From NCBI GenBank assembly GCA_044892525.1, contig CM097885.1, forward strand, positions 140,306,001 to 140,370,000: a DNA stretch of 64,000 nt, in the 5' to 3' direction. The translations under genes and the position numbers were made by a program. The notes beneath the pieces were generated by a model. The model did not search any database, had not been told where the DNA came from, and saw only the letters and a program-made list of their open reading frames with translations. The DNA comes from Schmidtea polychroa. Its lineage: Eukaryota. Shown here piece after piece: positions 27,463 to 64,000 of the stretch (the stretch's first letter is position 1; each line of letters opens with the position of its first letter).

Positions 27463-27568
27463 ATCTAGAGTGTCACAAGAGAAGCGAACTATATAAGGGA
27501 AAACAAGTTGACATGAAATTGGAATAAGATTAGAGACAAAAGTGACGCGAAATTGAAACAATTTGGAA

Positions 27569-27620
27569 GACGATTTGAGAGACAATTTGAGAGACAATTT
27601 GAGAGACGATTTGAGAGATA
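27569..27620 (+). repeat. 12-bp tandem repeat (gagac(a/g)atttga, ~4 copies)
   Basis: Read directly from the sequence. Confidence 0.85.
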
Positions 27621-36699: not shown

Positions 36700-38136
36700 G
36701 TCATAACTTCGACTACTGATTTGAGCCATAGATTTAGAAAATGATTGAGTACTTTCATTTTATTATTTGCGCTTGTCGAACTTCTTTACGAGGATTTTTA
36801 CGTTTACTTCTAGGAAAAATTTTATAGAATTATATATCTCAATGAGGTTCGACAAACTTACAGATATAATCGAGCTTTTTCATGATGTTCAACTGACTAC
36901 GTGTGTTTAGTTTGGGTCTGAGATCTACTCAATTATGATCCTAGTGTGAAACTCTTGTATGAGATTTTTAATGTTGAGTTTAATTATGTTCTACATTCAA
37001 CTCGGGAAGAATGCTTGCTTACACGGCCCCACTGTGACCGCTACGACAAGCCCTACTGTAGTGTTGAGCCGAAACATCGCTGTCGACCGATAAATAAATA
37101 GTTGGAGCCATAGCGGAGGGGTTTTATCGACACAACTCCATGGTAGAACCATGAAGTGGCCGACCTCCGATGACCGAACAAAAAAAAATTTATATAAAGG
37201 ATATTGCATGTCTGCATGTTTCGTTTTAGAAAAATTAACATCAAATGCAGGACTAAATAGAGACGCACTAAGACGCCGCTGATCAGTCGTATTTAAAGAA
37301 AAAATAAAAAAATAGGTCTTAAGGATGTTAAAATGGATTTACATTAAAATAATTACATTAATCATAGGTAAAACATCAATCAAAAAAAAAAAACTTACTA
37401 TTAGTTTTTCGACAAAATTTTCGTCAACAAAATATTGGCATAAAAAGTGATTTCGTGACTGAAACGTGTCAGTATATATACCTATTTTGTACACGTGTAT
37501 GTATTGATGCATTAAAACAAACTCGAATTCTTTTTATTCCAGAATTTTCTATTTCGCGATTTTGATATTTTTAATGGCAATTTTTGTGCCATAATTTTTG
37601 TTTTTATTTTTAAATTTTTATTTTTTAATTATTTTTTGTTAATTTCACGTCCATGATGGATTTGGAACGGTTCCAGAACATTCTATATTACTTTTAATTT
37701 AATTTTTATTTTAACTGATGTTTTTATGAATTTCTTTTTAAGATTTTTTATTTTTATTACCAATTTATTTATTTTTCTAAATTTTATTGTTTAAGGTAGC
37801 TTTTATGATGGTCATCGCCATTTTTATGGAATGTTCTGGGTTTTTTCTGGAATTTTTTACTGTTTTTACCATCTTTTAAGTTATTCGAGTTTGCTTTTTG
37901 TAATTCTATGTTTATTTGGTTATTTTCTAGTTAAATTTTGCATAACTTCTTGCTTTTGTATAATTTTATTTAATTTCTGTGTTTATATTTTTTTTTGTTG
38001 TTTCTCTTTTAATCATTATTGTTTATTTGGTGTAATTTTCATATTTAACTATACTTTTTGCTTTTTGCATGCTGTGTACTTACACATTTCAGTCACAATT
38101 AGAAATTTGGGTCCAGAAGTCAGTTCTAGCCCAACA
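36700..38136 (-). mobile_element. 5' part of a long LTR-like repeat (subfamily 2)
   Basis: Starts TGTTGGGCTAGAAC at 38136; homologous to 4783-5900. The left boundary is approximate (it abuts the hAT element). Confidence 0.65.
37013..37170 (-). ncRNA. Conserved structured cis-RNA candidate (motif 2), second copy
   Basis: Covarying stems relative to 5597-5768. Confidence 0.5.
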
Positions 38137-39190: not shown

Positions 39191-40985
39191 TGTTGGGTGG
39201 CTTAGGGGTGTGTCATTTTAATTTTGAATGTGTTAGGGGTACTTATAGATGTTGAATCGAATCCTTCCTAAACGCCTTCATGACTATTGTCGTTATACCA
39301 TCTGTGTACCCATGGGGACAACCATGTTGGTGCTGTTCACAATGGCTGAAAATCCAAAAGCAGGTGAGCTCCATTGCTAAAACTACTCCTCATGATATTT
39401 TCATTTTGGGTTCTGGACTGCCGATAGAAGGTCTTACGTCATTGTTCATTATCAATCCTGTTTTTAGATTATTGTCATATATACATTTCATTGTGGACTT
39501 CATTTCTAGATGTTTGCTAATGTTACCTTCAAAAATTTGCTCAGGGATCCTCCTTTATTTTTCTGTTAATAAATGTTACTATGTGTTTTCCATAATATTT
39601 ATGAACATTTAACTTATCCTTCAAAACGTTTTGAGAAGGGATCTGCCCTTATTTCCAAGTTAATAAATGTTGTTCTATACTTTCTACAATATTCAAATTA
39701 TTCTTCAAAAATTGTAAGAAGGGATCTGCCTGTATTTCTAATCCTAACATATGTATATATCCACTAAAATATATCCATATCCACTAAAACTCTTACAGCG
39801 ACGGACCCGAAAAGAAGCCTCCACATTACGACTCGAAATCAGCTGTGTGGTTGAAAAAGCCAGTATACCCACCAGTCTCAGCATCCCGAAGGTACGCCAA
39901 ACCATGGTATGCTGAAGTTCCACTCCACTATATCTATTGTTCATTAACAAACATAAAAATTACAAACTAGAAATTAGCAATTAAAAAGAACCAAAAAAAA
40001 TAACTAGAACTAAAATTAATACAAAGATTTATTACCTTAAAACATTACATAAAAATTACAAATTATATAAAATTACGAAATCCAATTCAAACTTACCAAG
40101 AAGACATAAACCGAAGACTGAGAGCGTCACAAAATGTTTACACTGTCTGCAAACCAAGTTTGATTTCAAGTTGAAAACTAGTTGTTGTATGTTAACTGAA
40201 TTTTCAATCAGTATTTATACTGATTTTGACTGTGCATCCATGCATTCTCTGCCACTAGATCCAATCAGAATGCAGTAATTATATATTTTTAATTTAATTG
40301 ATTTAATTTTTATTAATTTCAACAATTTAATTTTATATATTTTATAATTTTAATAATTTTAGCTAATTTTATTTTAATTTTACTTAATTTTAACCATTTA
40401 ATTCTATCAACTTTATAATTTACATAATGTTAACTAATTTTATTTTATAATTTACATAATTTCAGCTAATTTTACTTTAACTTTTATTATTTTATCAGTT
40501 CTACTGGAAGTTCTTTAGTTTCAATTTTTAAATGTATTTATTTCTATATTTTATTTCATTTAATTTTTAAATAATTTTTTCCTGTTCCTTTTCTTAAAGT
40601 ATGCCCTCATTGTCAAAGCTCCTTAGTGTGTAAATACGAGCCATAACATCCCTAATTAATTCGATTATGGTGTTTTGATTGTAAATACGATCAACAATCC
40701 TTCTTAAAATTTATTTTCATATTATTAGTTAATTTATTATCAATTATTTTATTTTCTAGTTGGCAGGTTTTTTGAATGTGATATATCTCTTAACTGTGTT
40801 GGTGATTGTAACTTTATGCGTTTCCTGATTTTATTATACATGTTTTATTTATTCTCAATGTGTTATATACTTTATTTTGTATTATTTGGTGTATGATCAT
40901 GGATTTAAATTCAACTTAGTGCGGCTTTTATGTTATGTATTTTCGATTCATTAAAACAAACGCTCAACCCGGTTCTAGCCCAACG
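39191..40985 (-). mobile_element. Internally deleted long LTR copy (subfamily 1)
   Basis: Starts cGTTGGGCTAGAAC at 40985. CCAAT at 40261, TATAAATA at 40219-40212, donor cttg|gtaagt at 40096, structured motif 39796-39930, GCCGATAGAAGG at 39420. There is no ORF. The left end is tentative and no TSD was found. Confidence 0.6.
39796..39930 (-). ncRNA. Conserved structured cis-RNA candidate (motif 1)
   Basis: Homologous to 49877-50005 with compensatory stem changes and a cUUCGg loop. Confidence 0.55.
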
Positions 40986-42427: not shown

Positions 42428-42860
42428 TTATGGGATATCAGAACGATTATCAGATTTTTTATCTGCTCCGAGAGGATCTTTAAATCCTTCTGATTCACAA
42501 AACAGTTGCCTTTCAAGGATTACTTTGCCTTCTTTGTACTGTTGACTTTCATCATTTGCTTGTTCGTAAATCCAACCTAGTTTAACGTGGCATTTAATAC
42601 AATGAACATCTCTAACTAAATGACGTCCGGTTAACATAAGTCTATCCTAATTAAAGCTAAAAATTTTATTTATAAAATAGTTATTTAACTTGTAATTCAG
42701 TAGAATAAATATTGACGACTTTATTAAACAAAAACGCTCGCCCTGTAACACCGCTAAACCTAGTACTAATTATTTCGTCTTTATTAGATAATGGAGTATC
42801 ACATGCTTGACATTGAATTATTCTTTTGCCACCCAAATGTTCAATAAACAAAATTCCCAT
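42428..42860 (-). CDS. YPEL5: Yippee-like protein (YPEL5/yippee-type), 2 exons, 129 aa
   Basis: [24 protein letters not shown]...[16 protein letters not shown] | [19 protein letters not shown]...LGWIYE...YKEGKVILE. Intron 42647-42689 (43 bp, GT-AG). Confidence 0.92.
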
Positions 42861-44559
42861 AATCAAAAATTTTGAAAATTTTAATTAATTTAATCAGCTG
42901 ATTAACTACTAGAAAATATTTTAATACAATCAAACAATTGATAATATAAAATTATATATTTTTTATATCATGATTTAAAATTTTTATTTAAAATTCTGGT
43001 ATGCAGAACACTGGAACTTTTTTTTCAAAATTGATGTTAATTTTTGCTAAAAATTTTCTTATTACTGAAAAATATTTACATATGTTCATTATATGATTTT
43101 CAAAATAATTATTTTTATAAAAATTGTTAGACAAAACTAGGTCTGGGAGCTTTGTATTGTGTTTTTATTTTATCGTATCGGTGGCACGTCAATGTTAACA
43201 GGCAACAAGTTGAATTAAAATCAACAGGTAGAGCTACCTTCTACCTGATCCTACTCATTGTTTTCGTTGTACTTCAATTTGCTTGTTAAACTTGTGGAAG
43301 TAGAAAATATGTCGACACCATAGGACGACATCTCATAACAACGTCTCAACCCATTGAATTTGGACAATTTATTTCATTATGCATTACGCAATATTTGTTA
43401 GAAACTTTTCAAGTTTCGGGTCCACTGGAATAAAAATGAAATATATTTAAAATGTATGGAGATAACTAATCACAACAAATTACACATGTCAGCAGAGACC
43501 GATATTTATCCCGTGACCTTGAGACTCTGATGTTATTGACTGTAGTGGGATGATAACAGAATGGCATAGTGCTATGTAGGCCATAAGAAAGAAAATTACT
43601 GATCTGATTTCAAGTGTGTATTGAAATATCAATAAAAATGACAACTTCTATCTATTATCAAGATTTATTATCTATCGCTTTTATAATCAATTCAATTTCT
43701 CCTGACACAATTACACAAAAATGTTACCACTCAAGATTCTAAACTCAAGACTTATAATGACAAACAGTGAGTAATAGTCCAATTAATAACTTTCAAACTG
43801 TTTCTTCAATCGAACTTCCTCGACATTGTAGTTTCAATATACGGGTTTCTTTAATTTCTGTTTGATTTCTGATTCTCTAATATTCATTTTCCAAAATGTC
43901 TAACTATTTTCTTCATTTTCGTTTTTTTGTTGGATTCATGGGGTTAGGGTTACCATTGAAGATATCTGGCTTTAATTCTTTCCTGTCCCCATCTTTTTAT
44001 TCACTGACTTTCCTTGATCGTTCAATAATACATTAGGACCTTCCCATCCAAACTCTTATGTGCGATTACAGATTCCCAAAAATAATTAAATCGTAAATAT
44101 AACTGGGTATTTATTACAAGTCGGTACTAGTTTCTGACTCATCGGTGTCATTATTCGAATAAATCGAACAACTCAACAACAATAACGTTTATTCAAAATT
44201 ACTACAATTGTTTCCCCACTTTATACACATATTTCTACGTCATTTTTAATCTTTCGCGTTTGGATAAGTATTCCAATTAGAGATCTACTTTCTGGTAAGC
44301 TTAAAACTTCTTGAAATTGTCTTCAACCAACTAGTCATTCCATTACTTTTCTCCTCTTTTATTCTGAATATTTAATTCACTTTTCATTTAAATTGATTTA
44401 ATGCTAGAATGTCTCTTAAGGTTATAAATTTTGTTTGCATTTCCCAAGGTTTTCTTTCCTAACTAATTTATTGTCAATTTGGAAACATTAGGGCTTTCAC
44501 ATGATCCATTATTTTTAGCAATTTTTAAATAGAAGTCTGATTCCTTTTTTGTTTCTGGT

Positions 44560-44819
44560 TTTCCTTTATCCCACAATTTTGTATTTTCCATTATCTCGGG
44601 TTTCCTATTAGATAATTAATTTTTTGATTTTAATTTTCTTTAAATATTTGCTTCTGATTTTATTTTGTTATATTTAAAATTATTATGTTTATTTTAAAAT
44701 GATTTTTGAATAAGTTTTAGCACTTTAATTATAAATTTGGATTTAATGTTTATATTGATTTACATTTAGTTTTAGTGATTTTTATTTTTATTTTGGCATG
44801 GTTAGGCCGAACCCCAACA
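44560..44819 (-). repeat. Possible start of another long-LTR copy (TGTTGGGGTTCGGCC)
   Basis: TGTTGGG followed by the same strongly A-biased tract seen after the other LTR starts. The left boundary is arbitrary. Confidence 0.35.
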
Positions 44820-45789: not shown

Positions 45790-46833
45790 TTACACACCCT
45801 TAGCTCTCATAGTCGATTTGTTCCCTAAAAGACCGTTGCACCTTAGGTGCAAGAAAACCCACTCACTATATCCAACCCCCTTAATCTCATCCTTAAATTT
45901 GCCTATAACTAAGTCAAATCTTATAGAATATAAAGGATGAGAGGGATTGTAATTGGAGGTGTCTAACAAGCCATCCGAAATCATCGCAGATTAAAGAATG
46001 TCAAGCCTTAGATTTTTGACCTCTAAGAAGAAACTCTCGGTATCACCCGCAACTATATTTATAACACAGTTAAACTGACGCTTATCTTTCTTTAATTCTA
46101 TGTATTATAATTGATACATCCTTAGTTTGGATAAATCCAGCACTGATTGTCCGATGTAGCTGGGTCTATCCAAACATATAGAGTCCTTATTGGGATGCGC
46201 TGCAAAAAGATCGTCATCCATTTTAATAGTTTTTCTAAATGCAGATGAATATGTAATCAAATTTTCAGCTGAATTAGATATCCTCAAATGTAATCTCTTT
46301 TTAAGGTTTTCAGCGGATTTACCGTATAAGCTATTATTATACAATTTAAATAAATCTCTATACAGTTCACTGCTTGATTCTGCTCTTAATTTTGTATTTT
46401 TATTTATATAATTTTTAAAAATAGGTGCTTGCTTGAATTTTATAGCCCTATATATATTTACAACTTTGGAACCAAGAGACAAATAAAGCTTGAGAAGCCT
46501 CCAATGAAAAACATGGTTCTTCTTGGGTCAATGTGTAAGCATCAGCTTCTCAACTTTTGAGTCAGGTGGGCACATTTTCTCAGGAGCAAGAGGAAAGTCA
46601 TTCAGGAAATCATGCAAACATTCAGGAATATCGATATCCACTTCCATGGTATAACCATAGGGAAGGATTTCAATATCATCATTCATAAACTCAAGCAAAA
46701 CATCATTTAAACCGTCATACACCCAAGTAAATTCAGCAAAAAGAAGATTTTGGCTAAGACCCCAAACATACAGATTATTTATATCAATGTATTCAGTATT
46801 ATCAGAAGGAGCAAGGTAATGTTTGTTAACAAA
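45790..46833 (-). pseudogene. Protein-primed family B DNA polymerase relic (Polinton/Maverick/adintovirus type)
   Basis: YIDINNLY, FPLAPEK, FKLYNNSLYGK, YIGQSVLDLSKLRMY, GDTES (GDTDS-like), DTSNY...HPLYS...GKFKDE. Broken by stops and frameshifts, and cut at 46833 by the LTR. Confidence 0.9.
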
Positions 46834-47418
46834 TGTTACCCATACCCCGGTATTCCTCCCTCGTGTTGGCGGGCACTACTCGGTTGACCACCCTTAGTTC
46901 AACTTTCTAGTCTAGGGGATGAATGCCTGTTACAATTATATCTTTCATTACTGTGTCACCCCCGAGCAGGGCCCGTACATAATCTATACTCCAACATAGC
47001 ACCCGTGAATTGCTTCACGTTGGAACTGTGCTATGCCGGCGAGACGCCAGTAAGCAGGTGAGCCACCATCTTCGGACTACTCCTTACTGAGGCCTCGACT
47101 TCCTACCCCTGACTGCCGATAGAAGGACTTACGTCTGCTCATTCTGTCACCCTGTCGCCATACTCTTGATTTAGATTGCAACTGGGCCATACTCCTCGAA
47201 TCTCAAAACACTCAATGCCATTTACCACTCAATGTAAATTCCTTATGAACGAAAAAAACAAAACCCGTATACAGACAAAAATTGTTTATTTCAAACATTG
47301 TAATACAGGCGCGTCGTAACTTATACATCAGAATCAGAATAAGAGAACACAAAGACAGGAAATGATGTTAGTTGATTCAGGACTCTCCGAAGGATGAGGT
47401 CACTTCACGGGAAAATCC

Positions 47419-48168
47419 TCAATTTTCCCACTCGGAGTCGGCGAGTAACTCGTCCAAATCGAAGAATTCGGAGGCGTTTTCCTCCCACATCACTCCAGCG
47501 GCAGATACGATCCGCCCTGGTGTTCCTGTTGTTAGGTTAATTACAGCAGGGGCGTTATTGACATTACTACCGAGGTCAGGCAGTTGCTTGGACTGCTTTG
47601 CGGCTATCCGCTCACGCTGTTTCCTTTTACGTTCGGCCCTCGATAGCTGCCGACGCTTTGGTTTGTTGGTCGATGAATTGTTTGGGGCTACCGCCGATGT
47701 AGAGGCGACGTTAGGCAGTACCCGACTATTTCCAACAAAAACTACCTCTAGTTGCCCTGGCGAGAGTTGCGTTTCTACGCACGGCCGGCAAGGTTTTTTC
47801 GAAGGGGGCGATGATTTGGCCGAAGTATCATGGTGGGTCGGAAAGAGATTGTCGGCGTCACCGATGGGGAGTTTCACTATCTTCCTAGTTGCCGTAGCCT
47901 GGATGTACACTTTATGCAGCGCCTCGGACTGCTCCTTGATCAAACTTCTTTGGGCACGACTCTCGGAGATTAGAGCGTCCCGGCAATGTTCACTTCGGTG
48001 TAATTTCTTTTGGGTCTCTTTCATCTGGGCGGGACTAAACCATGTCCCCTCTAACTCGTCTATTTTCTTTTTGTACCGTCCGATCTGGGTCTGTAGGTCC
48101 TTGATTATTGCGTTCTTGTCGGAACAAGAAAAACAGGGCCTGAGGACGGATTTTGCATTGGGTAACAT
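47419..48168 (-). CDS. LTR-encoded 249-aa protein: CxxC, coiled coil, basic NLS-like segment, acidic/aromatic C-terminus
   Basis: Intact ORF preceded by the acceptor ctcttcttag and followed by AATAAA at ~47290. Homologues at 257, 26376 and 29366. Confidence 0.8.
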   Translation of the reverse strand: MLPNAKSVLRPCFSCSDKNAIIKDLQTQIGRYKKKIDELEGTWFSPAQMKETQKKLHRSEHCRDALISESRAQRSLIKEQSEALHKVYIQATATRKIVKLPIGDADNLFPTHHDTSAKSSPPSKKPCRPCVETQLSPGQLEVVFVGNSRVLPNVASTSAVAPNNSSTNKPKRRQLSRAERKRKQRERIAAKQSKQLPDLGSNVNNAPAVINLTTGTPGRIVSAAGVMWEENASEFFDLDELLADSEWEN

Positions 48169-49876
48169 GTCTGCTAGCTAAGAAGAGTAATAACACTAAA
48201 TGGGATAAATCAAGTTTAGAAAATCATCATCTTCCGCCACTATTCGTTAATCAGTATTAGACAGTTTTACCGGAAAAGAAAAACGGATTATTTATCAAGA
48301 GGGATTTCCTATGCCATCGACCTATGCGGGCTCTAGGTGTTTATTCACTAGAAAACCAACTGGCAACATAAGGCTTTACTTAACGAAGGTTGTACGTCAT
48401 TGTTAAAGAAAATGAAAATTGCATGTTTGAGAGGAATTATTGATGACGGAAATTTTCCTGAAGAGATAAATAGCATTGAAAATTCAACCCGAACTACATA
48501 ATCACTAAGTGAACATTTAGCTAATCATTATAATGATTTTATAGATAATTAGATAAGTTGGTTGTAATTTATTATTAATTGAAAATGTTAAATTTTAGCA
48601 GTTCCATTAATAGACGTGAACTAATTGAGTTGAATTTATTTGTATTTTGTTTAGGCTTTCGATTATATTGTCTATATTTTATTATAATTTGGTTTTCAAA
48701 TCTCACATTTATTTACTATTTTAACATAAATTATTGAGTTGTTGGTGACTCATGTTATCATCACTCATGTCTGGTGCTTTCGGTAAATAGCCGAGATTTT
48801 CATCTGACACACCCGGTGGATTTTTCTCAAGTTAGCCGTTCGTGGTGAATTATCTACTATCGGGTTAGATGACTATGCGATCTCAATAAATGTGTCACCT
48901 GGAAGATAGACTCGTAGAATTACGGCCAGTGATATCTGTGTTATTATTGGTGAGCACTAGCATGTGGACTTTGGTTATTAGAACTCGCCATGTGTGCATT
49001 TACACATGTGTGCGGGTACTCACTTCGTGAGACTCTTATCCTATTCGGCAGCTTGCATGAATCATCAGATGTTATATTATACTGTGTTGAATTTCTATCT
49101 CTCATGAAAATTTTGCATAGGAAGATTTTGCGTAACGTTGTTTCTGGATGGCATTCGTTTCGTAGACAAATTGGTCAACTATTCAAGCTATGGTTTCTAC
49201 TCCCCTCATGGATTTTATCATTGTCAACATGCCCATTATCTATATCGAGTTGGAAATTATTTAACTATCGCTGGAAATACAATTCGACGAAATGCGGAAA
49301 TTCTATCATCCTCTGTGACATTTCTAAGACTCGGATTTTTCTCCCATGGAGGGTTGGTCGGATCAGTTATCTCTCACCCTACCTTTGCATCAGTTGACAC
49401 AGACGTTTGGCATTCGATATATAAAGGAAGGACTTATTTAAGTGGTTTTGAAATATATTTTTCTTGATCAGATTCGTTATTATCTCATGGTTTATTATTT
49501 TTGAGAACTATTTGTTTTCCACAATCCACCACAAGTAGGGTTTAGAGGGACGTATCAAAATTGATTGCACGTGATAAACATAGCTGATAAAAATAGCAGT
49601 TATGAAAGTTGGTAGGTTGAAGGTTTCAGGAATAATTTCGAGAGGAATCACGAACGCAGAGGATATGCTACAAATGGTGCCCAGACTGATTTGACGGAAA
49701 GTCCTATATAGATCTTCAGATGGTAGTAACAATTTCAATTTGCTAAAGACGATAGTATGACGCCCTCAATCACCATGCGAACTCTCGAACGAGATTTTCC
49801 TCATATGACTACACTTCTCATTGCTTGATAGTTACCCTCTCTCTACAGTATCGTCCACATATTTTAGTCACATCTT

Positions 49877-50005
49877 CAGCGACGGACCCGTGAGGAAGCC
49901 CTCACATTACGGCCCGAATCAGCTGCGTGATTGAAAAACGCCATGTCCACCGGCTGAGCTCCCGAGGGCACCTCACACCATGACATGGAGTTTCTCAACG
50001 CCACG
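49877..50005 (-). ncRNA. Conserved structured cis-RNA candidate (motif 1) downstream of the LTR splice donor
   Basis: Stems ttgagaaac/gtttttcaa, ccatgtc/gacatgg, cagc/gctg, gggcc/ggtcc and gtgagg/cctcac. Most G-U pairs favour the minus strand. Confidence 0.55.
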
Positions 50006-50222
50006 TTTCTCGGAAATTTATAATCATTAAATAAATATGCATAAAAATCAATCAGAAAAAGTTCATAATAATTCATTTATTAAATAACTAAATCCTCTAA
50101 TTAGCAAATGTATCATTAGGAATCAAACGAAAGGACAACTGTTTTCAGTTTAAATTTATAATTATTTCATAAAATTACATGACTACTATTACTTAGATAA
50201 AGTATAAATCGAAAAATTCCTT

Positions 50223-50495
50223 ACCAAGTAATTTGTATAGATTTTTAGGCTGAGTCGGAAGGTATCGAATCGAATAAATGGTTACTCGAAATTTACGTCG
50301 ATTGTTAACTGTTTGATAATATCTCCTGGTTTCTAGATTGATTCTCGTACGTTGCTGCTGTTTACCTGTAAAGTTGGTTGTTTAACGGTAACTGTTAAAA
50401 TTTGTCTTACCTGTAAAGTTGGTTGTTTAACAGTAAGTTTATAATTTTTGTGTTTCCTTATATATTAATTTTTGATGTGTGCGGACCAATCAGAA
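50223..50495 (-). promoter_or_regulatory. LTR promoter (CCAAT 50486-50490, TATA-like ~50458-50466) and 5' splice donor (cttg|gtaagg at 50224)
   Basis: The same order, ccaatcagaa then TATA then cttg|gtaag, is conserved at 40261, 40215 and 40096. A 25-bp direct repeat at 50362-50386 / 50407-50431 contains further donor-like sites. Confidence 0.55.
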
Positions 50496-51099
50496 TTGAG
50501 TGCCGCTTAATTTTATTGCTTTAATTTATTTTTCTTGTTTTTGAGTTATTTTTTCCTATTTTCTTTATTTTTATTGTGTTTTTATTTATTTTCTTTAATT
50601 TCTTTATTATTTACTACATTTTACGTTATTTTTTTGTCATTCTATTGTCCTATTTTAATTTTCCTTATTTTTATATTTTTTTGTTTTAATTCCTATTTTC
50701 TAATTTTTTATTTTTCTTATATCCTATTCTATTTTATTCTTAAGTTTGTTTGTTTTTTTTTTATTTTAATTTAATTATGTTTAACCTAATTTCTTGGATA
50801 CCCTTCGACTCAGCCCAACAAATCACTCGGGGACCCGACAAAATTGCGTCCCACAATTACATACTTGAGCTACTCTTATTCTCTCATAAAAAGATAAACA
50901 CATTCATAAAAAGATAGCATAGTGATTAACAAAATTATAAACATCAATAGAACTTTATTAATAAGATATAGGTCAAATCAAGACCAAGCAGTCATCACTT
51001 ATGGTGATGGTTTATATACAAAGCAAAATTTTCACAATGTAATGTTTTAGTTCAGTTATGGTATTGTTCGATTATTCTGATGGTTTTGGTTGGAGTTTG

Positions 51100-51720
51100 T
51101 TACTGCGGTTGGGAATGGATATTATGGTAGGCTTGAAGACTGGATGATGGTTGAGGAGATGCTTTGTTGGCTAATCTGGGTGGGCTTGTGGTTTGGGTAG
51201 CATTGGTTATTTCGACTGGGTTTTGTACGGTGGCTCTAGATTTCGAGCTCTGACATTTTTTCTTAACTTCGAGGATTTTTAGGAAGGTTATGAGGCATAA
51301 TGAGATAGTTTCTGCGACCACTACGTAGAGAAGGTAATGGGTGTCGCTGTTATTGGAGGGTGTTTCTGTTGTCTCGGCAGGATTTTCGAACACTTCTTGT
51401 TGAATTTGTTGTTCCAACTGATCGAAGTGTTGGACTTGTTCGAGTATTTTCCGGTCTATCATTCGGCATACAGGGCTATTCTGGCATAAACGTCTGATGT
51501 TGTTAACATATGACCGAACCGATTGGATATTATGGAGGAGGTTGGTTTTTATTGTATTGGGGTATTTGCATTGGCAAGGGTCTGATTTGGCTTTTTGATT
51601 CCGATTGCGGTGGTCTCGTATGCTTGTTGGTTGGGAATTTAATGGTGGTTTCTCCATCAGGTGATTTATCAATACCATTACTGTTATTGTCATACCATAC
51701 CACATTGTACTAATATACAT
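51100..51720 (-). CDS. Accessory ORF: probable single-pass membrane protein
   Basis: Hydrophobic N-terminus, four Cys in the putative ectodomain, TM segment YLLYVVVAETISLCLITFL, and an S/T/P-rich tail. Confidence 0.6.
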   Translation of the reverse strand: MYISTMWYGMTITVMVLINHLMEKPPLNSQPTSIRDHRNRNQKAKSDPCQCKYPNTIKTNLLHNIQSVRSYVNNIRRLCQNSPVCRMIDRKILEQVQHFDQLEQQIQQEVFENPAETTETPSNNSDTHYLLYVVVAETISLCLITFLKILEVKKKCQSSKSRATVQNPVEITNATQTTSPPRLANKASPQPSSSLQAYHNIHSQPQ

Positions 51721-51759
51721 TTATTATTATTATATTATTTACACTGGCTTTAATTGCTT

Positions 51760-52470
51760 TTAGTTAAACGGTTCTGTTTTGGGATTATTTTCGGCGGTTC
51801 TCATCAGGGTAGACTCCGCTTTAATGACCCTGTGTCTCAACTCGGGCAGCATTTCCAACTGTCTGTCCTTTTCACGGGCCTCCCTTTTCATGTGTCTTAT
51901 CTCCTTCTCTAATCTTCTAATTTCTTCCCGTTTTTTATCGAGATTCCTTTTTAGTTCGATTTGCAGGAAATCTTGTTCGTTTTCTTGCGAAAGGTTTCGT
52001 TGTTGTTGTTGTTGCTTTCTCTCGATCTCTTGGTATTTGCGAATCCATTTCTTCATTTCCTCACTTTCTCGTTGTTTTTCCTCCAATTGTCGATTTAATT
52101 TATTTATAGTTATTTGGCGTTCTTTCGCCTCTGTTTTCCAGTAGTCCTGGATTACTTCTTCTGCTTTGAAGCTTGCTCTTTCTTCCCATAATTCTTCTGC
52201 GATCTTTTCCCAATTTCTCCCTCGCTTTCGTTGTTCTTGTAACCATTCATTTCTCTCTTCTACTTCTCTCTTTACTTCTCCTAGTACTTTGCACTCTTTC
52301 TTTAGTACTTTAATTATTTTCCGGTCTCCTATGTATTGGTTTATTAGTCTCTCGTTTTCCCGTCTCTCTTCCTGCAATTCTTTCTTTAGAGTTCGTGTTT
52401 CTGTGGTTTCTACTTCAATCTCTCCTTCTTCCGCTTCACTCATGAGTTCTATTATCTCCTCAATCTTCAT
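51760..52470 (-). CDS. Accessory ORF: E/K/R-rich coiled-coil protein (236 aa)
   Basis: Intact intronless ORF with heptad-like charged helices. Confidence 0.7.
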   Translation of the reverse strand: MKIEEIIELMSEAEEGEIEVETTETRTLKKELQEERRENERLINQYIGDRKIIKVLKKECKVLGEVKREVEERNEWLQEQRKRGRNWEKIAEELWEERASFKAEEVIQDYWKTEAKERQITINKLNRQLEEKQRESEEMKKWIRKYQEIERKQQQQQRNLSQENEQDFLQIELKRNLDKKREEIRRLEKEIRHMKREAREKDRQLEMLPELRHRVIKAESTLMRTAENNPKTEPFN

Positions 52471-52627
52471 ATCTATAATATTTATAATTAATCATGCGCT
52501 ACAGTGCGACTCATACTTATACATTCATATACAGTTTAGGAAATTAGGGTTACAGCCCCTCAAATACTTTTACAATACTTTTAATTTTTTTGTTTGGGAT
52601 ATAAGTCCCGAATTTTTTTTAAATTTT

Positions 52628-53701
52628 CTATCTTTTTATTCGCCTATATACGAAGGTTTCCTCTTGACCCACGTATCCCTCATCGCTCTCGACCGATGCC
52701 TGTAGCTGGATGGCAATGGGGTCATATGGTATGTAATATTGGGGAATTTGAGCTCTCAACTCGTGAACTTCATTTCGTAGTGCTCTAGTGATATTCAATT
52801 CTTCGTCGAGCAAATAGGTGAGGTATCTCGTCTCATCATCTTTGGCTTCTAATTGCCTATCTAACTCCTTTATCTTTTCCTCGCCCTTCCATTTCTCGAT
52901 CTCTATCTCTAGATTTTTGAGGTTTTCGGTATACATTTTCCGTTCGTTTTCCAGCTTCTTATTTTTTCCTGCCAGTACCATATTTCGTTGTTCTAGAGCT
53001 CCCTGATATCCATTGACATCTCGTTCCAGCGCCGTGACCTTATTTATTAGTTCCACGACTCGTCCTGAATGCTGGAGTATCATTTCTTCCATCGCTGCAT
53101 TCTCGTGCTCCTTGATGGAGATTTTCATAGCCAAATGTCTTTCAAACTCCATGGCCTTGGTCTGCCATGTTTGACTTCGGGCGGCAATCTTTCTCAGCCG
53201 TTTGAGTTCCTCTTTTATCACTAGGTTCTCTTCCCATTTGCCTTGTTCGCTTTCGTACTCTAATCTCATAGGCAATTCTTTCATTTCCTTTTTCATTTCT
53301 CTGTTCTGTCGCTTCCATTTCCGGGCTTCGGTCAATAGATGTCGCATCTTTTTCTCCTCTTTTTGTTTTTCGGTCTCTCGTTTTTTATTCTCATCAGTCA
53401 GTCTTTTCCGCGATTCTTGTAGTAGTTGTTTTAGATAGTGACTGTGCGATTCTTGTCGAGTGTTTTCTAACGAAGCCCATTGTGCGGCCCTTTTACATGT
53501 CTCCGCTTCCGTTCTTAAATTGTCTACCAGCCATTGGTATTTGTGAGTTTCGTACTCCCTGGCTTCCTCAATGTGATTTCGGGTGAGGTTAGCTAATTGG
53601 AACATCACCTTGTTCCATTTCTCACTATATTCTTTGGGGATTTGTGTCTTGTTGGTATTATTTGGGGCTATCGTAGTTCCGGTTGTTCTTTCTTGTGTCA
53701 T
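52628..53701 (-). CDS. Accessory ORF: coiled-coil protein (357 aa)
   Basis: Intact intronless ORF with long charged helices. Confidence 0.72.
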   Translation of the reverse strand: MTQERTTGTTIAPNNTNKTQIPKEYSEKWNKVMFQLANLTRNHIEEAREYETHKYQWLVDNLRTEAETCKRAAQWASLENTRQESHSHYLKQLLQESRKRLTDENKKRETEKQKEEKKMRHLLTEARKWKRQNREMKKEMKELPMRLEYESEQGKWEENLVIKEELKRLRKIAARSQTWQTKAMEFERHLAMKISIKEHENAAMEEMILQHSGRVVELINKVTALERDVNGYQGALEQRNMVLAGKNKKLENERKMYTENLKNLEIEIEKWKGEEKIKELDRQLEAKDDETRYLTYLLDEELNITRALRNEVHELRAQIPQYYIPYDPIAIQLQASVESDEGYVGQEETFVYRRIKR

Positions 53702-53897
53702 TTTCTAAATCATATATTCTGATTAAATATCATCGCAGTATTAGATTTTATTATTCAGTTGATGTTTTTTCCTGGATTTTTTCGCTTTAGTTTTGGGTTG
53801 TTGTATTTGCGGATCCCATACTACTATTATATATTATTTTATAGGTTATATACACCGATATATACAGATTTATTATATACAACGTTATTCGCACTGG

Positions 53898-54845
53898 CTA
53901 CTCGGTTCTGCTCTTTCCCTCCTTCCTCACTGTCATCTTGATATATACGGTATCATTTCTCGCCATATCCTCTATCTTTTGTTGTAAAATGAACGTAGGC
54001 GCTCCTGTTGCTGATCCTTCTTCGTCGAGGGGTCTCTGGTAAGCCATCTGATTCCCCGTTGTTTTGAAGCTTTGTTCATGTATACTTTGATTGTTCATTA
54101 TTACAATGTTGATTTTCGACTGAAACGGCCATTCTAATATTTCATCATACTCCCCTTTACATAACAGAAAAAATATCGAAAAGTGTGTGTCTAATCCGGT
54201 TCCGTCCCCGTTGGGATATATCTTCATTTTCATTTTGTATCCATTCTTCCATGAGAGGAATGCGGGACTGGTTATTCTAGTATCTTCTCCAATTTTTGCT
54301 TTTCGTATCTTTTCCTTCACTCCCGAAATTTTCCATATGTAAGGTGCGGTTGGTAGTATTTCATTGAGATTTATTTCGGTTATTTTTTGATCTAACACTT
54401 CGGCTTGCTCATTACTGATTTCCATTCGATTTATTTGCATTTTTATGTTGGCTCGAGCTTGTTCGAGAGCCTCTCTTTCTTCTAGTAGTTCTTTTACTAA
54501 TGCCTTCAGTGAGGTTATTTCTATCTCCAGTTGTTGCACTTTCTCTTCACTTTCTTGCAACGCAGTTGACCACATTTCTGCATGATTTATTACATTTTCT
54601 GTTAAATGGTGTGGTAAGTCTCCTCGGTGTAATAGTTTCTGACAGCCCCATTTACTTAGAACACATCTCATCCTTTTCTTTTCACATTCTTTTAGATGCT
54701 GGGCTAATTTTATTATTCCCCCTTCGTTGCATCCGTTCGGGCATTCGCCACAGAACTCTGCACATACCTTTTCCTCTTGGACATTGTGATGTTTGATGGT
54801 GAGATTTCCTTTGCATCGTACGCCCTTGCTCCTGCATATTAGATA
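53898..54845 (-). CDS. TRAF-like protein: TRAF-type zinc fingers, coiled coil and MATH (TRAF-C) domain
   Basis: YIWKISG...SPAF...GYKMKMKIYPNGDGTG..THFSIFFLLCKGEYDEILEWPF is a TRAF-C signature. The frame stays open upstream of Met 54671 to 54845 and includes CPNGC...LAQHLKEC...C...GC...HHL. No introns. Confidence 0.9.
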   Translation of the reverse strand, partial: YLICRSKGVRCKGNLTIKHHNVQEEKVCAEFCGECPNGCNEGGIIKLAQHLKECEKKRMRCVLSKWGCQKLLHRGDLPHHLTENVINHAEMWSTALQESEEKVQQLEIEITSLKALVKELLEEREALEQARANIKMQINRMEISNEQAEVLDQKITEINLNEILPTAPYIWKISGVKEKIRKAKIGEDTRITSPAFLSWKNGYKMKMKIYPNGDGTGLDTHFSIFFLLCKGEYDEILEWPFQSKINIVIMNNQSIHEQSFKTTGNQMAYQRPLDEEGSATGAPTFILQQKIEDMARNDTVYIKMTVRKEGKSRTE

Positions 54846-55094
54846 CTACTTGTGCTAGTCCAGCGCATTGTTGTTTCCACATATCCTCGGTCGTTGTATT
54901 GCGATTTATTTCGTTATTTCCTTGCTCCATTCTTAATTTTTTATACATTCTCAATCTTTTTCTTATTTAATTTTATATTGTTTATTTCTCCCGATCGTTA
55001 TATATTATTAATACCGCGCTTATATACGAATATAATACTGTTATATACATAAGATATACTTACTTTTTACAATTATATACAGTCATAACCCTTT

Positions 55095-55469
55095 TTATAT
55101 TTGTGGATTTGGAGGGCACTGCATATTCCAGGCCTCCATCCACTGTTCTTGGCTCATTTTACTGGGCCTTTTTACTTGATGTTGAAAATTCCTGGCTCTG
55201 ATCATTTCGAGTTTGTTACGCTGCTGTTTATCTCGGATTATTTTTATCGTCCCCCCCGTTATAGTTATGAACGCTCCGGTTATTATTATTCCGCTGATCC
55301 ATATCATCTGCTTCACACTGATGATCTCTGAGTTTCCATTGTTTGTTATTGTACTCGCTGTTTCTGCATTTCCCTCTTTCTCTGTTTGGCTTTTTCCTTT
55401 CTCCAACCATCGTATTCTTGTTATTTCCTCATTGATCCCTTCTTTTGCCATTTTTTGTATTTTTTCCAT
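55095..55469 (-). CDS. TM plus cytoplasmic segment; probably the frameshifted end of the polyprotein
   Basis: MIWISGIIITGAFITITGGTI hydrophobic helix. The frame is open back to ~55505 and overlaps the end of the 55421-60124 ORF. Confidence 0.55.
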   Translation of the reverse strand: MEKIQKMAKEGINEEITRIRWLEKGKSQTEKEGNAETASTITNNGNSEIISVKQMIWISGIIITGAFITITGGTIKIIRDKQQRNKLEMIRARNFQHQVKRPSKMSQEQWMEAWNMQCPPNPQI

Positions 55470-58400
55470 TTCCTCTTCTGATACGTAGTTATCTTGGTTA
55501 TATCATTGGTCTTCTGACGTTTTCCTTCTTCATCTTCTTCGTCATTGATCTTTCTTTTCTTTCCTCTTTTCCCAGGATATCGTCGACATTCCTTTTCTGG
55601 TCTTTTTCTCACGATACAGACCGTGTATTCCTTTGGCGGTTGTTGTTGTGTTACATATTGTAGACAGTCTTCTCCTGGTCCTAACCTTGAAATACAAACT
55701 TTGTGTTCTTTCCTTGGTTGGAGTTGTGTTATCACTACTTCACCTCCTTTACCCAGGTGCACCTCTTTCCATTTGACTTTCGTTATTCTCTTTCCGTTTC
55801 GATGTTGGTATGCCTCTTGTATTCCCACTTCCGTTATCGGTTCTGTGTCCTCGTTCATCAATACTAATCTCCGATATGCTCTAGACATGCATCTTCCCAG
55901 TATACATCTTTCCTTTAGATCCCATTCCTCCTTCAGATCCCATTGTTGTTCTTGCATTTGCTTTTTCTTTTCTTGCTTTAATTCCTCCTCTTTGTTATCG
56001 TGATTTTCCGCTTCTTTGGTCTCTTTTATCGTTCTCGTCCCTCCATGAGCTGTTACTAACTCTATCATGGTTAGTACAATTATCATTAGTATCATATTTG
56101 TTTCCATTTCTTTGTTGGTGAAGGGTAGGCATACCCTCTGTTTTCCATTATTTGGTTTTTCCTCCTCTTTCGTCTTGTTTCCCGGGTTGTTTCCTTCTTT
56201 TCCCGTACCTGGGTCTTTATTTTCCGGGTTATCCTCTTCCGGTTTTCTTTTCTCTTTGTCCTCCTTTCGACCTCTTTCGTCATTATCATCGTATTTATCT
56301 CCCCCGCTGTCGTTTAAAATGTCGTCCTCGACATTTATATCGTTTAATAGTCTTCGGTATGCTGTTAGTACTCTATTTCTTGCTAATTTAGCTTCAAATT
56401 CAAACTCTTTTCTCCCGGTTGCTGCGTGTCTCTTCCGGTTCCATTCCTTTACTAGTTCTCTCAATTGGATCCGGCGGTGTTTTCCAATTCGTTGTTGTTC
56501 GTTTTGATTTTTCGTGAATCTCAGGTCTTCTCTATTCAATACAATTAATATGATTTTAGGTGTCTCCCCTTTAGTTAATGTATTTTTGACCATTGCGTTT
56601 TCGCCGTTCTCATAAAATTCGTTTACGTTTATCGCATATTTATTACTTTGTGGCACTCTCCATGTCAACAATAATTTCATTGCTTCTAGATTTTTTCGTA
56701 CCGTATTCCACTGGAATTGAGATGTGTTTTTGCAGATATTTTCGACTTCTTCCTTTGTCGCGTTTTTGCAGATGAATCTGATCATTTCTAGGTTTGGCTG
56801 AATGGTTGCCCAATCCATTGTGGAATTTCCTTCGCTTGACTTTTCGTCTAATCTCGATCCTGATTGATGTAGTATATGTAATGTTTTTGGGTGTATTTTC
56901 GTTATAGCTGCATACATCATGGCGGTTTCGCCTTGTTCGTTTTTCGTGTTGGTTTCCTCTCCCAGATCTCTGAGAACTCTTATGATTGTAATTGCTCGGT
57001 TTTCTTTTGCTGCCAATATTGCTTGTTGTAACGGTGTTCTTTGATCCTTGTTCGACATGGTAAATGCTCGTGGCATGAAAGTTTTGATTTTCCCGATATC
57101 TAAATCCGTTGTCTGATCTCTTGCGTATGTATGTACGGTCTTTATTATTTTCGACAATATCATTTCATCTGATAACTCTAGCATTTCTTCAAAGAATACT
57201 TCTTTTGCTTTACGTATTATTGTTCCTTGATCTGAATTCATCGGTTTTGTTTTGATGACGTTATTTGCTGTAGTTTGGTTCGTTGGCGACTTTGATTCTT
57301 TTGACGTCCCCTTCTTTATTTTTATTTTCTTTCCGGTTGGATTATTGATTCGTTCTTCTGCTGTAAGTACTTGAATAATATCCAAGTAATTCTCGCGAAT
57401 GTTGTTCATTGTGTCCATCATATATAACACACTTCCCGTTTCCCAATATTTATTTCGTACTTGGTTAGTGAATTGAAATATTGATTTTTCGAATGTGTCA
57501 ATTCGCTTTTTTAATAACTGCTCATCTTTATGATTTGTGAATTTTATCCCTCGTTCTACTAATTGGTTTGGGATTTCGAATAATTGATGTCCTTTCATGG
57601 CTTCTCTCATAAGCGTGTTCTCTCCTCTCGTGAATGCTTCGTTTACGTCAATCATGAAATCATTTTTAATTGGATTTCTCCATGTAATTAATATTCCGGA
57701 AATTGTTGTTAGTTTCTCTTTGATTGCCGTTAATAATCCGTCATACATGTTTCCGACTTCTCGATTATCCTCGTATGCTAGTAGTTCCATCAACGTCGTG
57801 AACGCTTCGGTACTTTTCCCTTCGATTGCATGATGTAGTGCGTTTTTCTGATTGCGATCTTGTGTGGTTATTTTTGATCCTGTGTCGAGTAATGCGATTA
57901 TAATGTCTTTTGTTTTGCCTCTGTTTGCTGCTATCATTAGTGGTGTGTAGCCTTGGTTATTTTCTTGTTCTGTTGATCTCTTGCAGTCGTGAAATGCTTC
58001 TATTGTTTCTAGTATTTGTTCGTTGTTACCCACTTTCATGAGTTTATGTAATGGTGTGTCTCCATAATGATCTGTTACGGTAAATAATATTGGCCATTGA
58101 CTTTTAACTACTCGTAGCAGTGGATGTGTCCTCTCTCGGTTTGCGTAATTTTCGATCATAGTTAATAGACCTCCTAATATTTCGAAGTCTAGTCTGTCTT
58201 TTGCCCATCCGGGTATCTTAATTTTTACCTCCTTTACAATCTTTTCCGCTTCTGATGGTTGGATACCCAATCGTCCAGTCGTTGGTTCTGCGAGCTGTTG
58301 CATCATGTTCATTCTGTAAGTTTGAGAACGTGTGGTTAACGTACGACCTTCTGGTTGACTGGTGGCTGTTTTTGGGATCGGTTTACATCGTGCTACATTT

Positions 58401-60215
58401 ACGTATATTGGACTGGTGAACGGATTATTTACTAATTTCACTCTTACGTTAGTTTCACCCACAAATAAGATCTCATATGGCCCTTTTCCGTTCCGCTGTA
58501 ATTTTTTCGTGGTTCCCGGAATCAATTCTGGTGTTTCTATCATTACCCAATCACCTGTTTGAAAGGTATGTTGCTTCACGTTTTTCTTTCGATCGTGTAA
58601 ATCTTTATAACTTTCCCGGTAGAACTTGATATTTAATCCCGCAGTTTCCCAAATCTCTTGCATTCTCTCCTTGAATTTTGTGACATAATCGTCTATCTCC
58701 ATATATTGCGATATCGGTGGTTGATATTCCAGGTCCATTGGCATGTTACATTCTCTCCCGTACATTAATTTGAATGGGCTCATTTTCGTTGATGCATGAA
58801 TTGACATTCTATAAGCCATAAGACATAGATTTATGTATTCGTCCCAATCTCGTTGGTGATGGTCGACGTAATTTGATAGCATTTGTATAAGTGTTCCGTT
58901 AAATCTTTCTGTCATCCCGTTGGTTTGAGGATGATACGGTGATGTTCTCAACTTTGAGATTTTGAAGTAATTGGTTACCTCGCTCATTATCTCACTCATG
59001 AAATTGGTGCCCTGATCTGTTAGTATTTGTTTCGGCGTTCTATATCGGCAACATATCTCTTCTACTAAGATTTTTGCGATTGTTTTAGCTTTTTGATCTG
59101 GCATAGCGAATGCCTCTGGGAATTTCGTGAGGTAATCCGTAATTACCAAAATATAAACATTTCCTTTATCCGATTCGGGTAATGGACCAATTACGTCCAT
59201 AGATATCATCGTCATCGGTTCTATTGGTACTGGCATTGGCGTTAAAGGTGCTTTCCATTTTGATCCAGTATTCCTTCTGGTCGCACAAGTTAGACAATTT
59301 TTCACCCATTCGGTTACGTCTTCAGTTAACGTAGGCCAAAAATATTTCTGTTTCATTCTTGCCAGCGTCTTTTTCGATGACATATGTCCTCCCAATCTTC
59401 CATCGTGATATTGCGTTAATAACTCTTTCCGTCGGTTTTCCGGTATACACATTAATCGTTTCTCTCCATCCATTATCAGCAACCAATCTTTCTCTATAAC
59501 GTATCGATGTCGGTGTTTATCCATATGTTCCTTTAATTTCTGGTCTTTCTCGTACACTTCGGTTTTTCCCGTTTTTACATAATCGATAATTTGTTTTAAT
59601 TCTGCATCTTCCTGTTGGTCCTTTCGCAATTGGCAAAAATCCAAGTCTTCCGCTACTATCAAGCATATGCGTTGCATTTCTGAATCTACCAAATCCGGAA
59701 AAATGAATCTCGACATACAATCGGCGTTGGCATTTGCTCTTCCTGCTTTGAATTTTATAAATGGAGAGTATTCTTGTAATTGCATGGCCCATCTCATTAG
59801 TCTACTTGATGCTTCTTTATGTTGCCCTAACCACACTAATGGTTGATGATCTGTGGTTATGCATATCTCGTGCCCCCATAGTAAATATCGGAAGTGTTTG
59901 ATGGCTTGTATTATAGCCAATGCTTCTCTTTCTGTTACTGAATAGTTCTTCTCGTGCTTTTTGAATGTTTGACTGTAATAACCGATTACTCTCTCTTTTC
60001 CCTCGTCATCCAGTTGTCCTAAAATCGCTCCTGCTGCATATCCGCTTGCGTCTGTTGCTAATAAGAACGGTTTCTTGAAATCAGGATGTACGAGGATTGG
60101 TGCTTCAATCAATTTATCTCTCAACGTTTCGAATGCCTCCTGTTGTTCTTTTCCCCAAATAAATGAGATATCTTTCTTTACCAGTTCTTGGATTGGTTTT
60201 GCGATTCCTGCATAA
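55421..60215 (-). CDS. Pol C-terminal part: RNase H, integrase (to ~58380), two ankyrin modules, signal-peptide-like segment, FN3-like domain
   Basis: LATDASGYAAGAIL, ITTDHQPL, HDGRLGGH...CLTC, ISMDVIGPL, LTDQGTNF, TSPYHPQTNGMTER. Ankyrins GDTPLH, GYTPLMIAA, RTPLQQA, GETAMMYAA. Tail METNMILMIIVLTMIELVTA and VITQLQPRKEHKVC. Confidence 0.93.
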
Positions 60216-63200: not shown

Positions 63201-64000
63201 TGCTCTATCTATTATCTGTCTTGACATGTAGATCCCTGCGTAGTTGGTCTTGTAGACGATACTATCGCATTTGGTGGTCTCCTTTTCTCTGATGAATCTC
63301 ATACCCAGGTCTGGGTCGTCTGTGATCAGTGCCGTTGGTGTTTTTTGTGTTGCGAGCCTCTTTTCCCTGGGCGCGGGTGGTACTGGTTTCCCATTTCGCA
63401 TTCTCACCTTTCCATTTCCATCCTCGTCATCTTCGTTCTCATAAATTTCCCCTTTTACTTCATTGAACAGGGCACTTTTTAACAATTGGAGTCGGCATTT
63501 TTGGGTGTTAGCTTCATATATTATGGTCGAAACCCCCGTCTTGCATACGTTTTCCGTAGCCTTACATATGGGGTTGGTTTTCATTTGATAATTATTGGCG
63601 TCAAATTGTGCTTCGTATTCTTTTAATTCCACTGTATAGGACTCGATTACTACTACCCCCGATATCGCCTCTCCTCTGATCGTATACGTACCTCCGTTAC
63701 ATGTACCATCAGTTGATTTTACGCGTCCGGCTACATAAATGCTTTCGGTTTTAATCATTCCGCTTTGCCCGTGTATCGTTACTCCGTCTCGGATCCTCAT
63801 CGCTCCGGTTCTAAACAGTTCTTTGCAATCCTCTCTTTGTATAGGCACTATTTCTTTATCCAATCCGGGTAGTATGAGAGTTGAATATGAATATTGTCCA
63901 CAGTAATACGCCAACACACGTTTTGATACTACGCACTCCTTTGCCAGCGTCCTGATGAAATCCGATTCTTGATACACGTGATATGAGACCTTTTTGTTCA
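60216..64000 (-). CDS. Polyprotein N-terminal part (5'-incomplete): chuvirus-like class III glycoprotein, TM, aspartic protease, spacer, RT
   Basis: The frame is open to the window edge (NKKVSYHVYQESD...). Glycoprotein Cys pattern: YYCGQYS, DGTCNGG, NDCSLNKEILKTKLAIA, GEVMYTYAC, CANELEI...FVQPVTRI...C...GKW. TM MAGILGIILIIQIV; protease [47 protein letters not shown]. A 1-nt excess in an A7 run (60216-60222) shifts the frame. Confidence 0.9.

Follow-up and report, generated by a model that had tools for sequence, protein, structure and literature searches.

Genomic context of the LTR-resident ORF

The window (the whole 64-kb stretch of DNA that was analysed) contained an intact ORF of 249 amino acids inside the right-hand long terminal repeat (LTR) of a giant gypsy element of the Burro type, inserted into a Polinton-type polymerase gene. 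A second, shorter LTR of the same plan lacked the ORF.

45800-46863, minus strand: broken protein-primed DNA polymerase B gene, Polinton type, insertion target of the element (PF03175, E 5e-11)
46864-50820, minus strand: LTR of 3,957 bp, right-hand LTR of the Burro-type element, TGTTGG...CCAACA (from termini, flank divergence and collinearity)
47419-48168, minus strand: intact ORF of 249 amino acids, ATG to TGA (from the ORF listing and translation)
50821-64000, minus strand: internal region of the Burro-type gypsy element, running off the window at 64000 (from domains)
39191-40985, minus strand: LTR of 1,795 bp, equal plan, without the ORF (from collinearity)

Burro elements occur in thousands of copies in planarian genomes, and from the presence of such an element the host is taken to be planarian-like. 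In the present element, a single ORF (60117-63800) encoded a mononegavirus-like fusion glycoprotein (PF24664, E 3e-52) in frame with protease (PF00077) and RT (PF00078), followed by an RNase H-integrase with ankyrin repeats, a TRAF/MATH ORF (MATH at 53901-54845) and four orphan ORFs. The element was assigned to the Burro type because this domain set matches the description of Burro/GYPSM1, as given in the available parts of PMC6431247: a fusion glycoprotein in frame before protease-RT, ankyrin repeats, TRAF/MATH and accessory ORFs, with multi-kb LTRs, as here, implied by the stated sizes. The same parts of that account list no LTR-resident ORF, whereas the present LTR has one. They also describe a typical Gag with zinc knuckles (the gag end of the present element lies beyond the window) and many apoptosis/ubiquitin modules, and Burro is reported to be under PIWI control (PMC8532177, available parts). 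The four orphan ORFs and the separate TRAF zinc finger/MATH ORF lay downstream of pol (51100-55500, minus strand), an order unlike that of the two Burro types in the accessible text of PMC6431247. The env-protease-RT and RNase H-integrase-ankyrin frames overlapped in different frames (60114-60220, minus strand), through damage or a programmed shift.

On the other side of the LTR, the PF03175 match started about 250 nt from the border at 46864, and no polymerase remains were seen inside the LTR. Judging by its motifs, the polymerase sequence probably extends right up to this border.

Several further features lay elsewhere in the window. LTR-like units starting with TGTTGGG were found at 4783-5700 (plus strand), 37000-38136 and 43900-44819 (both minus strand), the first two being 74-77% alike with a GC-rich block of their own. 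A 579-bp LTR-like insert (27471-28049, TGTCAC...GTAACA), a MITE with an 8-bp target duplication (27046-27461) and a 211-bp near-identical inverted pair (7516-7726 and 16772-16982) were also present, as were a gypsy pol (19749-21851), a Tc1 transposase (22006-22815) and an intact ORF of 756 amino acids without Pfam match (33965-36295). A host inorganic pyrophosphatase gene with short introns (PF00719) was located at 9500-10680 (minus strand), and presumably host exons with short introns, yippee-like in appearance, at 42430-42790 (minus strand).

Layout of the LTR

50410-50493, minus strand: promoter-like region with reverse CCAAT at 50493, TATA at 50464 and a splice donor near 50410 (from motifs)
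49874-50006, minus strand: block A, a conserved RNA hairpin and candidate response element that probably lies in a non-coding exon (from folding and pair conservation)
48169-48200, minus strand: splice-acceptor-like tract directly upstream of the ATG (from an acceptor test and gene models)
47285-47290, minus strand: AATAAA, likely polyadenylation signal of the LTR (position conserved before block B)
47040-47140, minus strand: block B, a conserved cluster of non-coding motifs located in the U5-like end and comprising GACGTAAG (donor/CRE-like), CCTTCTATCGGC and GCTCACCTG (E-box-like) (from sequence conservation)

The TGTTGG start of the 3,957-bp LTR was shared at 38136, 4783 and 44819 and, with one change, at 40985, and three contigs of run X11 diverged into unlike flanks behind 50820. 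The ORF-less LTR was collinear: its start was followed by an A-rich tract, the reverse CCAAT (40268), TATA (40219) and donor (40097), then by block A, AATAAA and block B, and it closed with CCCAACA. Together, the TG...CA termini, the X11 flanks, the collinear ORF-less LTR and the polymerase sequence beyond 46864 place the gene inside the LTR, in agreement with the initial annotation, which had called the protein LTR-encoded; the partner LTR lies beyond the window. No canonical polypurine tract abutted 50820, a purine-rich stretch being located about 50-65 nt upstream. The expected polypurine-tract site was occupied by a conserved block of 38 nt (50821-50858, minus strand) that contains two small inverted repeats, and many contigs diverged just beyond it. 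TGTTACCC (46834) and GGGTAACA (48160) had been considered as bounding a solo LTR of 1.3 kb, with the ATG formed at its edge. This candidate was rejected, since there was no target-site duplication, an X2 contig spanned 48058-48365 (3 differences, depth 227) and 46834 fell within polymerase sequence.

A splice acceptor was located at 50009, upstream of block A, while the donor after block A was non-canonical in the 3,957-bp LTR; the 1.7-kb gap between block A and the ORF region contained no long ORF on the minus strand. The acceptor test was passed by 2 of 3 ATG-bearing copies of the ORF, against 63 of 2246 ATGs of the window, and three database gene models (P0010, P0012 and P0027) joined unrelated host exons at one point, 4 residues before the Met. 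The true N-terminus of the protein may lie in an upstream exon, and must do so in the subfamily of the copy at 29 kb, which starts at a splice acceptor.

One AATAAA was found 126-175 nt before block B in all four copies, including the ORF-less LTR, a spacing for which 13% of such windows hold an AATAAA and whose test was devised after the pattern had been seen. Further AATAAA motifs, donors and acceptors occurred between the TATA and the LTR end. With TATA 50464 as sole promoter, the gene would fall in R, of about 3.2 kb; a second promoter near 47320 would instead place it in U3. A TATAAG was found about 30 nt before the AATAAA in the 3,957-bp LTR, but the ORF-less LTR had no TATA-like match at the equivalent position. 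A search of Rfam over 24-52 kb gave one chance match, and no tRNA was found.

The ORF, its paralogs and selection on the protein

47833-48123, minus strand: conserved core, residues 16-112, with two long helices, a G-T-W-x-x-P turn (41-46) and a short conserved segment (from models and alignments)
47584-47658, minus strand: Arg/Lys-rich helix, residues 171-195, net +10 (from composition and predicted model)
47422-47487, minus strand: acidic-aromatic tail, about residues 228-249, net -9, W/F/L (from composition)
25620-26376, minus strand: paralog, 41% over 188 aa at 25.8-26.4 kb, with two in-frame stops and a frameshift before the tail (from similarity)
1-442, minus strand: paralog, 55% over 86 aa at 0.1-0.35 kb, with a frameshift after the CxxC, cut by the window edge (from similarity)
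28930-29366, minus strand: distant paralog, 29% over 102 aa at 29.0-29.3 kb, without CxxC and with one in-frame stop (from similarity)

An ORF of this kind is unlikely to arise by chance: none of 2000 base shuffles of the region contained an ATG-initiated ORF of at least 200 amino acids. All three paralogs in the window were broken and on the minus strand. The 25-kb paralog was followed by AATAAA and part of block B and retained an acidic tail like that of the 249-aa ORF, in another frame; downstream of the 29-kb paralog came AATAAA and block B, and a CGTAACA terminus lay at 28519. In all three pairwise comparisons between window copies (82-114 codons), identity at the three codon positions was 0.61-0.65, 0.66-0.68 and 0.27-0.32, and pN was 0.32-0.34 against a pS of 0.92-1.00. 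Saturated third positions with 61-68% of positions 1 and 2 kept indicate that the ORF family evolved under selection for the protein. A 269-codon antisense (plus-strand) frame was open opposite the 249-aa ORF and over part of the 29-kb copy; it was rejected as the gene, as the 25-kb and 0-kb copies had 3-6 stops in each plus frame.

All motifs that the initial annotation had listed were found in the 249-aa ORF, including a CxxC at residues 12-15 (48124-48135, minus strand), the LEGTWFSPAQMK motif at residues 39-50 and a second CxxC at residues 127-130. The CxxC pair did not extend to the family: the first was subfamily-specific, present in 3 of 4 window copies and in none of the 19 database relatives described below (2 of them too short to tell), and the second was private to the copy at 47419-48168. 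The basic tract was an arginine-rich motif with 9 K/R in 15 residues in the 249-aa protein, and at least 7 K/R in 15 residues were found in all three window copies reaching that position. No canonical leucine-rich nuclear export signal pattern was detected in the 249-aa copy by regular expression, a weak test.

Summed contig depth over the ORF reached 1,557-6,776 in public run X1 and 1,382-4,754 in X2, far above the nearby flank bin (15 and 53), which marks the ORF as repeated sequence, depth not being copy number. Contigs of run X6 covered the ORF and X11 depth was zero over most of it, neither of which bears on expression; none of the sequence records carrying the ORF was listed as RNA, and assembled contigs cannot reveal transcript starts, ends or splicing.

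A second family of orphan ORFs was observed at 29692-30087 and 11169-11560 (both minus strand; 35% over 93 aa, shared ITRLRT...W-Y-x-I-H), without PHROG or Pfam match. Its member at 29692-30087 ends in an AT-hook-like RKRGRPRK, lies directly upstream of the distant 29-kb paralog and contains a donor at 29933 whose phase suits the acceptor of that paralog.

Database relatives and predicted fold

A profile built from the window copies matched 20 proteins among 1.84 billion, of which 17 had the core; the remaining three (P0020, P0021 and P0023) were coiled-coil look-alikes without it and were dropped. With two more from a second profile, the relatives numbered 19 (18 unnamed UniParc records and 1 protein from an ENA contig), 20-32% identical to the 249-aa query over the alignments. 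Residues 122-220 of P0023, from an ENA contig, carried a CxxC and coiled coil resembling query residues 11-40 (E 1.7e-4), without the core. Fifteen of the 19 relatives were fused to unrelated host domains, as would be expected if gene predictors capture the repeat exon, and we infer that the relatives are flatworm gene models. One of them, P0013, belonged to the same subfamily as the 29-kb paralog.

The T-W-x-x-P turn was kept in 17 of the 19 relatives, and the two long helices were also conserved. At the position of the basic tract, 12 of 19 had at least 7 K/R in 15 residues, most of the others being cut-short models. Many relatives had an Arg-dominated tract, with as many as 11 R in 15, in an otherwise divergent C-terminal half. 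Other features were scattered: the W-acidic motif in 3 of 19 (many models being cut short), PPxY in 3 of 19 and absent from the 249-aa copy, and a canonical export-signal pattern in the element-derived part of two, P0007 and P0018 (again by regular expression, a weak test).

Two AlphaFold models agreed on helices at residues 13/16-40, 46-96/98 and 177-194, with the remainder disordered and a pLDDT of 85-97 across residues 21-90. The initial annotation had recognised no known family and had proposed a Foldseek comparison; searches of Pfam, PHROGs, PDB and Atlas likewise found no known family, and Foldseek and VIA-align found no specific fold. Foldseek with the first model gave no match at E 0.001, and VIA-align with the same model reached a best Z of 10.2, among many unrelated hairpins. 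Pfam, PHROGs and PDB sequence searches returned weak coiled-coil matches only (PDB none under E 0.19), Atlas nothing at 0.9, and word searches with the single sequence and the first profile 0 of 613 and 0 of 581 candidates. A metagenome scan passed 2 of 172 stretches, both rejected as a short match with a stop in the disordered part. Pfam REV did not match the query or 12 aligned members; P0010 scored 19.1 bits against it, below the 22-bit cut-off.

Conserved blocks A and B

Block A folded better than shuffled sequence on the sense strand (z -3.9), whereas the other copy (39.8-39.9 kb) folded alone was no better than shuffles (z +0.25). Between the two, 37 of 37 predicted pairs held, 5 of them by two-sided changes (0 in six slid controls), a covariation drawn from two sequences from which the structure itself was derived and which 14 of 500 shuffles reached. 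The apical loop was UUCG in 113,947 of 114,575 depth units in X1 and in all of X2, X6 and X11. No block A could be recognised ahead of the other three paralogs.

Block B gave no folding signal in the 3,957-bp LTR (z +0.6 and +0.2), and its pattern had 0 matches in viral contigs. Its summed contig depth was 59,421 in X1 and 37,556 in X2; over both blocks, depth lay between 36,000 and 59,000 in these runs, well above that of the ORF. Blocks A and B were retained in ORF-less LTRs, including an X2 contig with a deletion of 47532-49874. At 47053-47068, 39360-39375 and 28675-28690, GCTCACCTG contained a strong splice donor on the plus strand (CAG/GTGAGC), possibly that of an antisense LTR transcript, or else an E-box.

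Possible functions of the LTR protein

We tentatively favour the reading that the product of this Burro-type accessory gene binds RNA and regulates the transcript of its own element. It is suggested by the basic tract, conserved in position while the remaining C-terminal half diverges, by the block A hairpin (fold, kept pairs and UUCG loop), by the export-signal pattern in P0007 and P0018, and by the retention of blocks A and B in ORF-less LTRs. As donors, acceptors and AATAAA lie inside the LTR, a full-length RNA must pass splice and polyadenylation signals, a problem that Rev-type proteins solve (PMC10309623 and PMC12789967, available parts). There is also a precedent in a gypsy element, the CERV protein of Cer1 (PMC10309623, same parts). 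The Arg/Lys helix is, by its sequence, a candidate RNA-binding motif and nuclear localisation signal, and the RNA hairpin of block A favours binding to RNA over binding to DNA.

Under such a scheme, the LTR promoter (TATA 50464) would drive a short spliced mRNA composed of exon 1, a block A exon and the ORF exon, ending at AATAAA 47290. The protein would enter the nucleus, oligomerise via its helices and use the Arg/Lys helix to bind block A or another RNA of the element, and its acidic-aromatic tail may recruit a host factor. Binding would allow the long intron-containing genomic RNA to be elongated, to avoid being spliced or prematurely polyadenylated in the left LTR, or to be exported, in the manner of Tat, Rev, Rex and CERV. 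ORF-less LTRs would be served in trans.

Several observations argue against an RNA-binding regulator. The 249-aa copy has no export-signal pattern; block A covariation comes from two sequences, the second of which, taken alone, folded no better than shuffles; block A was not recognised at the three other paralogs and is followed by a non-canonical donor; and a basic helix would suit binding to DNA, or mere nuclear localisation, just as well. An R of about 3.2 kb would be far above the retroviral range of 15-250 nt, as given in the available parts of PMC12789967, so the promoter assignment may be wrong. The broader proposal, which we regard as rather doubtful, treats each long Burro LTR as a spliced regulatory gene complete in itself, housed together with its cognate hairpin in about 3 kb of repeat region: an independently evolved Tat/Rev-like switch by which solo LTRs would supply the regulator in trans and decide between short and genomic RNA.

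A trans-activator of the Tas/Tax kind acting on the promoter is rather unlikely. The basic helix would bind LTR DNA or a bound host bZIP and the tail would activate, with the gene in U3 under its own promoter and a short R. The acidic W/F/L tail (net -9), also found in the 25-kb copy, the CRE-like and E-box-like motifs conserved in block B and the TATAAG near the AATAAA would suit this mode of action. The tail is however not family-wide, the CxxC is not conserved, the basic helix in the model does not continue into a zipper as it does in bZIP proteins, and the ORF-less LTR lacks the TATAAG equivalent. The initial annotation had proposed a regulator-like architecture and a nuclear trans-activator or RNA-export factor analogous to Tax, Tas or Rev. 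The layout stands, with oligomerisation-type helices, a basic helix and an acidic-aromatic tail, less the CxxC, which the family does not share; the analogy is weakened, with no link in sequence or fold to Tax, Tas, Tat or Rev detected and no canonical export-signal pattern in this copy.

The protein could also target host proteins rather than element nucleic acid, as an anti-silencing factor or ubiquitin-ligase adaptor, which we consider unlikely. The apoptosis/ubiquitin modules of Burro (PMC6431247) and its PIWI control (PMC8532177), both from the available parts of these sources, would be consistent with such a role, as would the TRAF/MATH and ankyrin domains of the present element, the PPxY in 3 of 19 relatives and rapid divergence outside the core. 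Against it, no similarity to any host domain was found, PPxY is absent from the 249-aa copy and the basic tract is the best-kept feature outside the core.

Structural proteins of retroelements commonly combine a coiled coil with a basic tract. The layout would therefore also fit a component of the particle or RNP, a Gag/ORF1p-like chaperone that packages or anneals RNA and aids strand transfer across the very long repeat, a multi-kb repeat that would presumably need help in reverse transcription. This role is very unlikely: Burro already has a Gag with zinc knuckles (PMC6431247, available parts), no capsid, RRM or zinc-knuckle match to the 249-aa protein was found by Pfam and fold searches, and both the acidic tail and the export-signal patterns suggest a nuclear protein. 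Least probable of all is that the gene is not Burro's and that 46.9-50.4 kb represents a distinct mobile unit, or a nested insertion, beside a short Burro LTR: the missing canonical polypurine tract, contigs diverging at 50858-50866 and 50444, depth ratios that vary between runs along the LTR, the different terminus of the 29-kb copy and a left LTR and target-site duplication lying beyond the window would allow it, but TGTTGG...CCAACA encloses the whole 46864-50820 stretch, the 1.8-kb ORF-less LTR repeats the full order from start to end, an X2 contig (depth 610) ties the region above 50427 to block A, and polymerase remains start at the unit's end with none seen inside.

Novelty and implications

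Burro elements are already known, as are accessory ORFs in or near LTRs as a kind (PMC7264820, available parts). No mention of an LTR-resident Burro gene was found in the literature, including the accessible portions of PMC6431247, PMC11410931, PMC8532177 and PMC9289625, where accounts of Burro cover internal domains only; Grohme et al. 2018, its supplements and Repbase may note one. With a gene under selection in its LTR, Burro would count as a complex element that regulates itself. If the RNA-regulator reading is true, Burro would join Cer1, with its CERV, as a gypsy element that has an RNA regulator of its own, and solo LTRs, usually deemed dead remnants, could encode a trans-acting protein. 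The LTR exon also accounts for the chimaeric gene models among the relatives.

Comparison with known systems

At best, the LTR protein works like Rev, Rex, Tat or CERV; it is a member of none of these families. CERV of the C. elegans element Cer1 is likewise a novel nuclear gypsy protein, made from spliced RNA, with a helix-hairpin-helix domain, and is required for export of the unspliced genomic RNA (PMC10309623, available parts, as for all statements on CERV here). It is set apart, by its description, by its 517 aa, sequence shared with Gag, globular M and G domains and invariant cysteines (PMC10309623), whereas the LTR protein has 249 aa, is LTR-resident and has no globular domain or invariant cysteine. 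The H-M-G plan of CERV with its invariant cysteine loop is absent from the LTR protein, whose models contain nothing beyond a helical hairpin plus a single basic helix.

Rev, Rex, Rem and Tat are similarly small proteins with an Arg-rich motif, a helical oligomer region and a cognate stem-loop in or near the LTR, TAR lying in R and RexRE in the 3' LTR (PMC12789967, available parts). They differ in that no homology to them was found, the viral genes lie outside the LTR and no export-signal pattern was detected in the 249-aa copy. Pfam and PDB sequence searches showed no homology of the 249-aa protein to Tat, Tax or Tas either. Tat and Tax have a conserved cysteine/zinc region. This region has no counterpart in the LTR-protein family, and as the CxxC is not a family feature, the plan common to the family is not that of a Tax/Tat-type zinc-finger trans-activator.

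Grande GENE23 and other ORFs of plant LTR retrotransposons are comparable as conserved orphans presumed to be regulators, with their own promoter and a nuclear location in one tested case; these additional ORFs lie between pol and the 3' LTR, often in antisense (PMC7264820, available parts). The Burro ORF, in contrast, is in sense orientation and inside the LTR. Accessory ORFs in or overlapping the U3 of the LTR are found in MMTV (Sag), HIV (Nef) and foamy viruses (Tas/Bet). No homology to these was found, and here a whole gene, with an apparent promoter, introns and a poly(A) signal, lies within the LTR.
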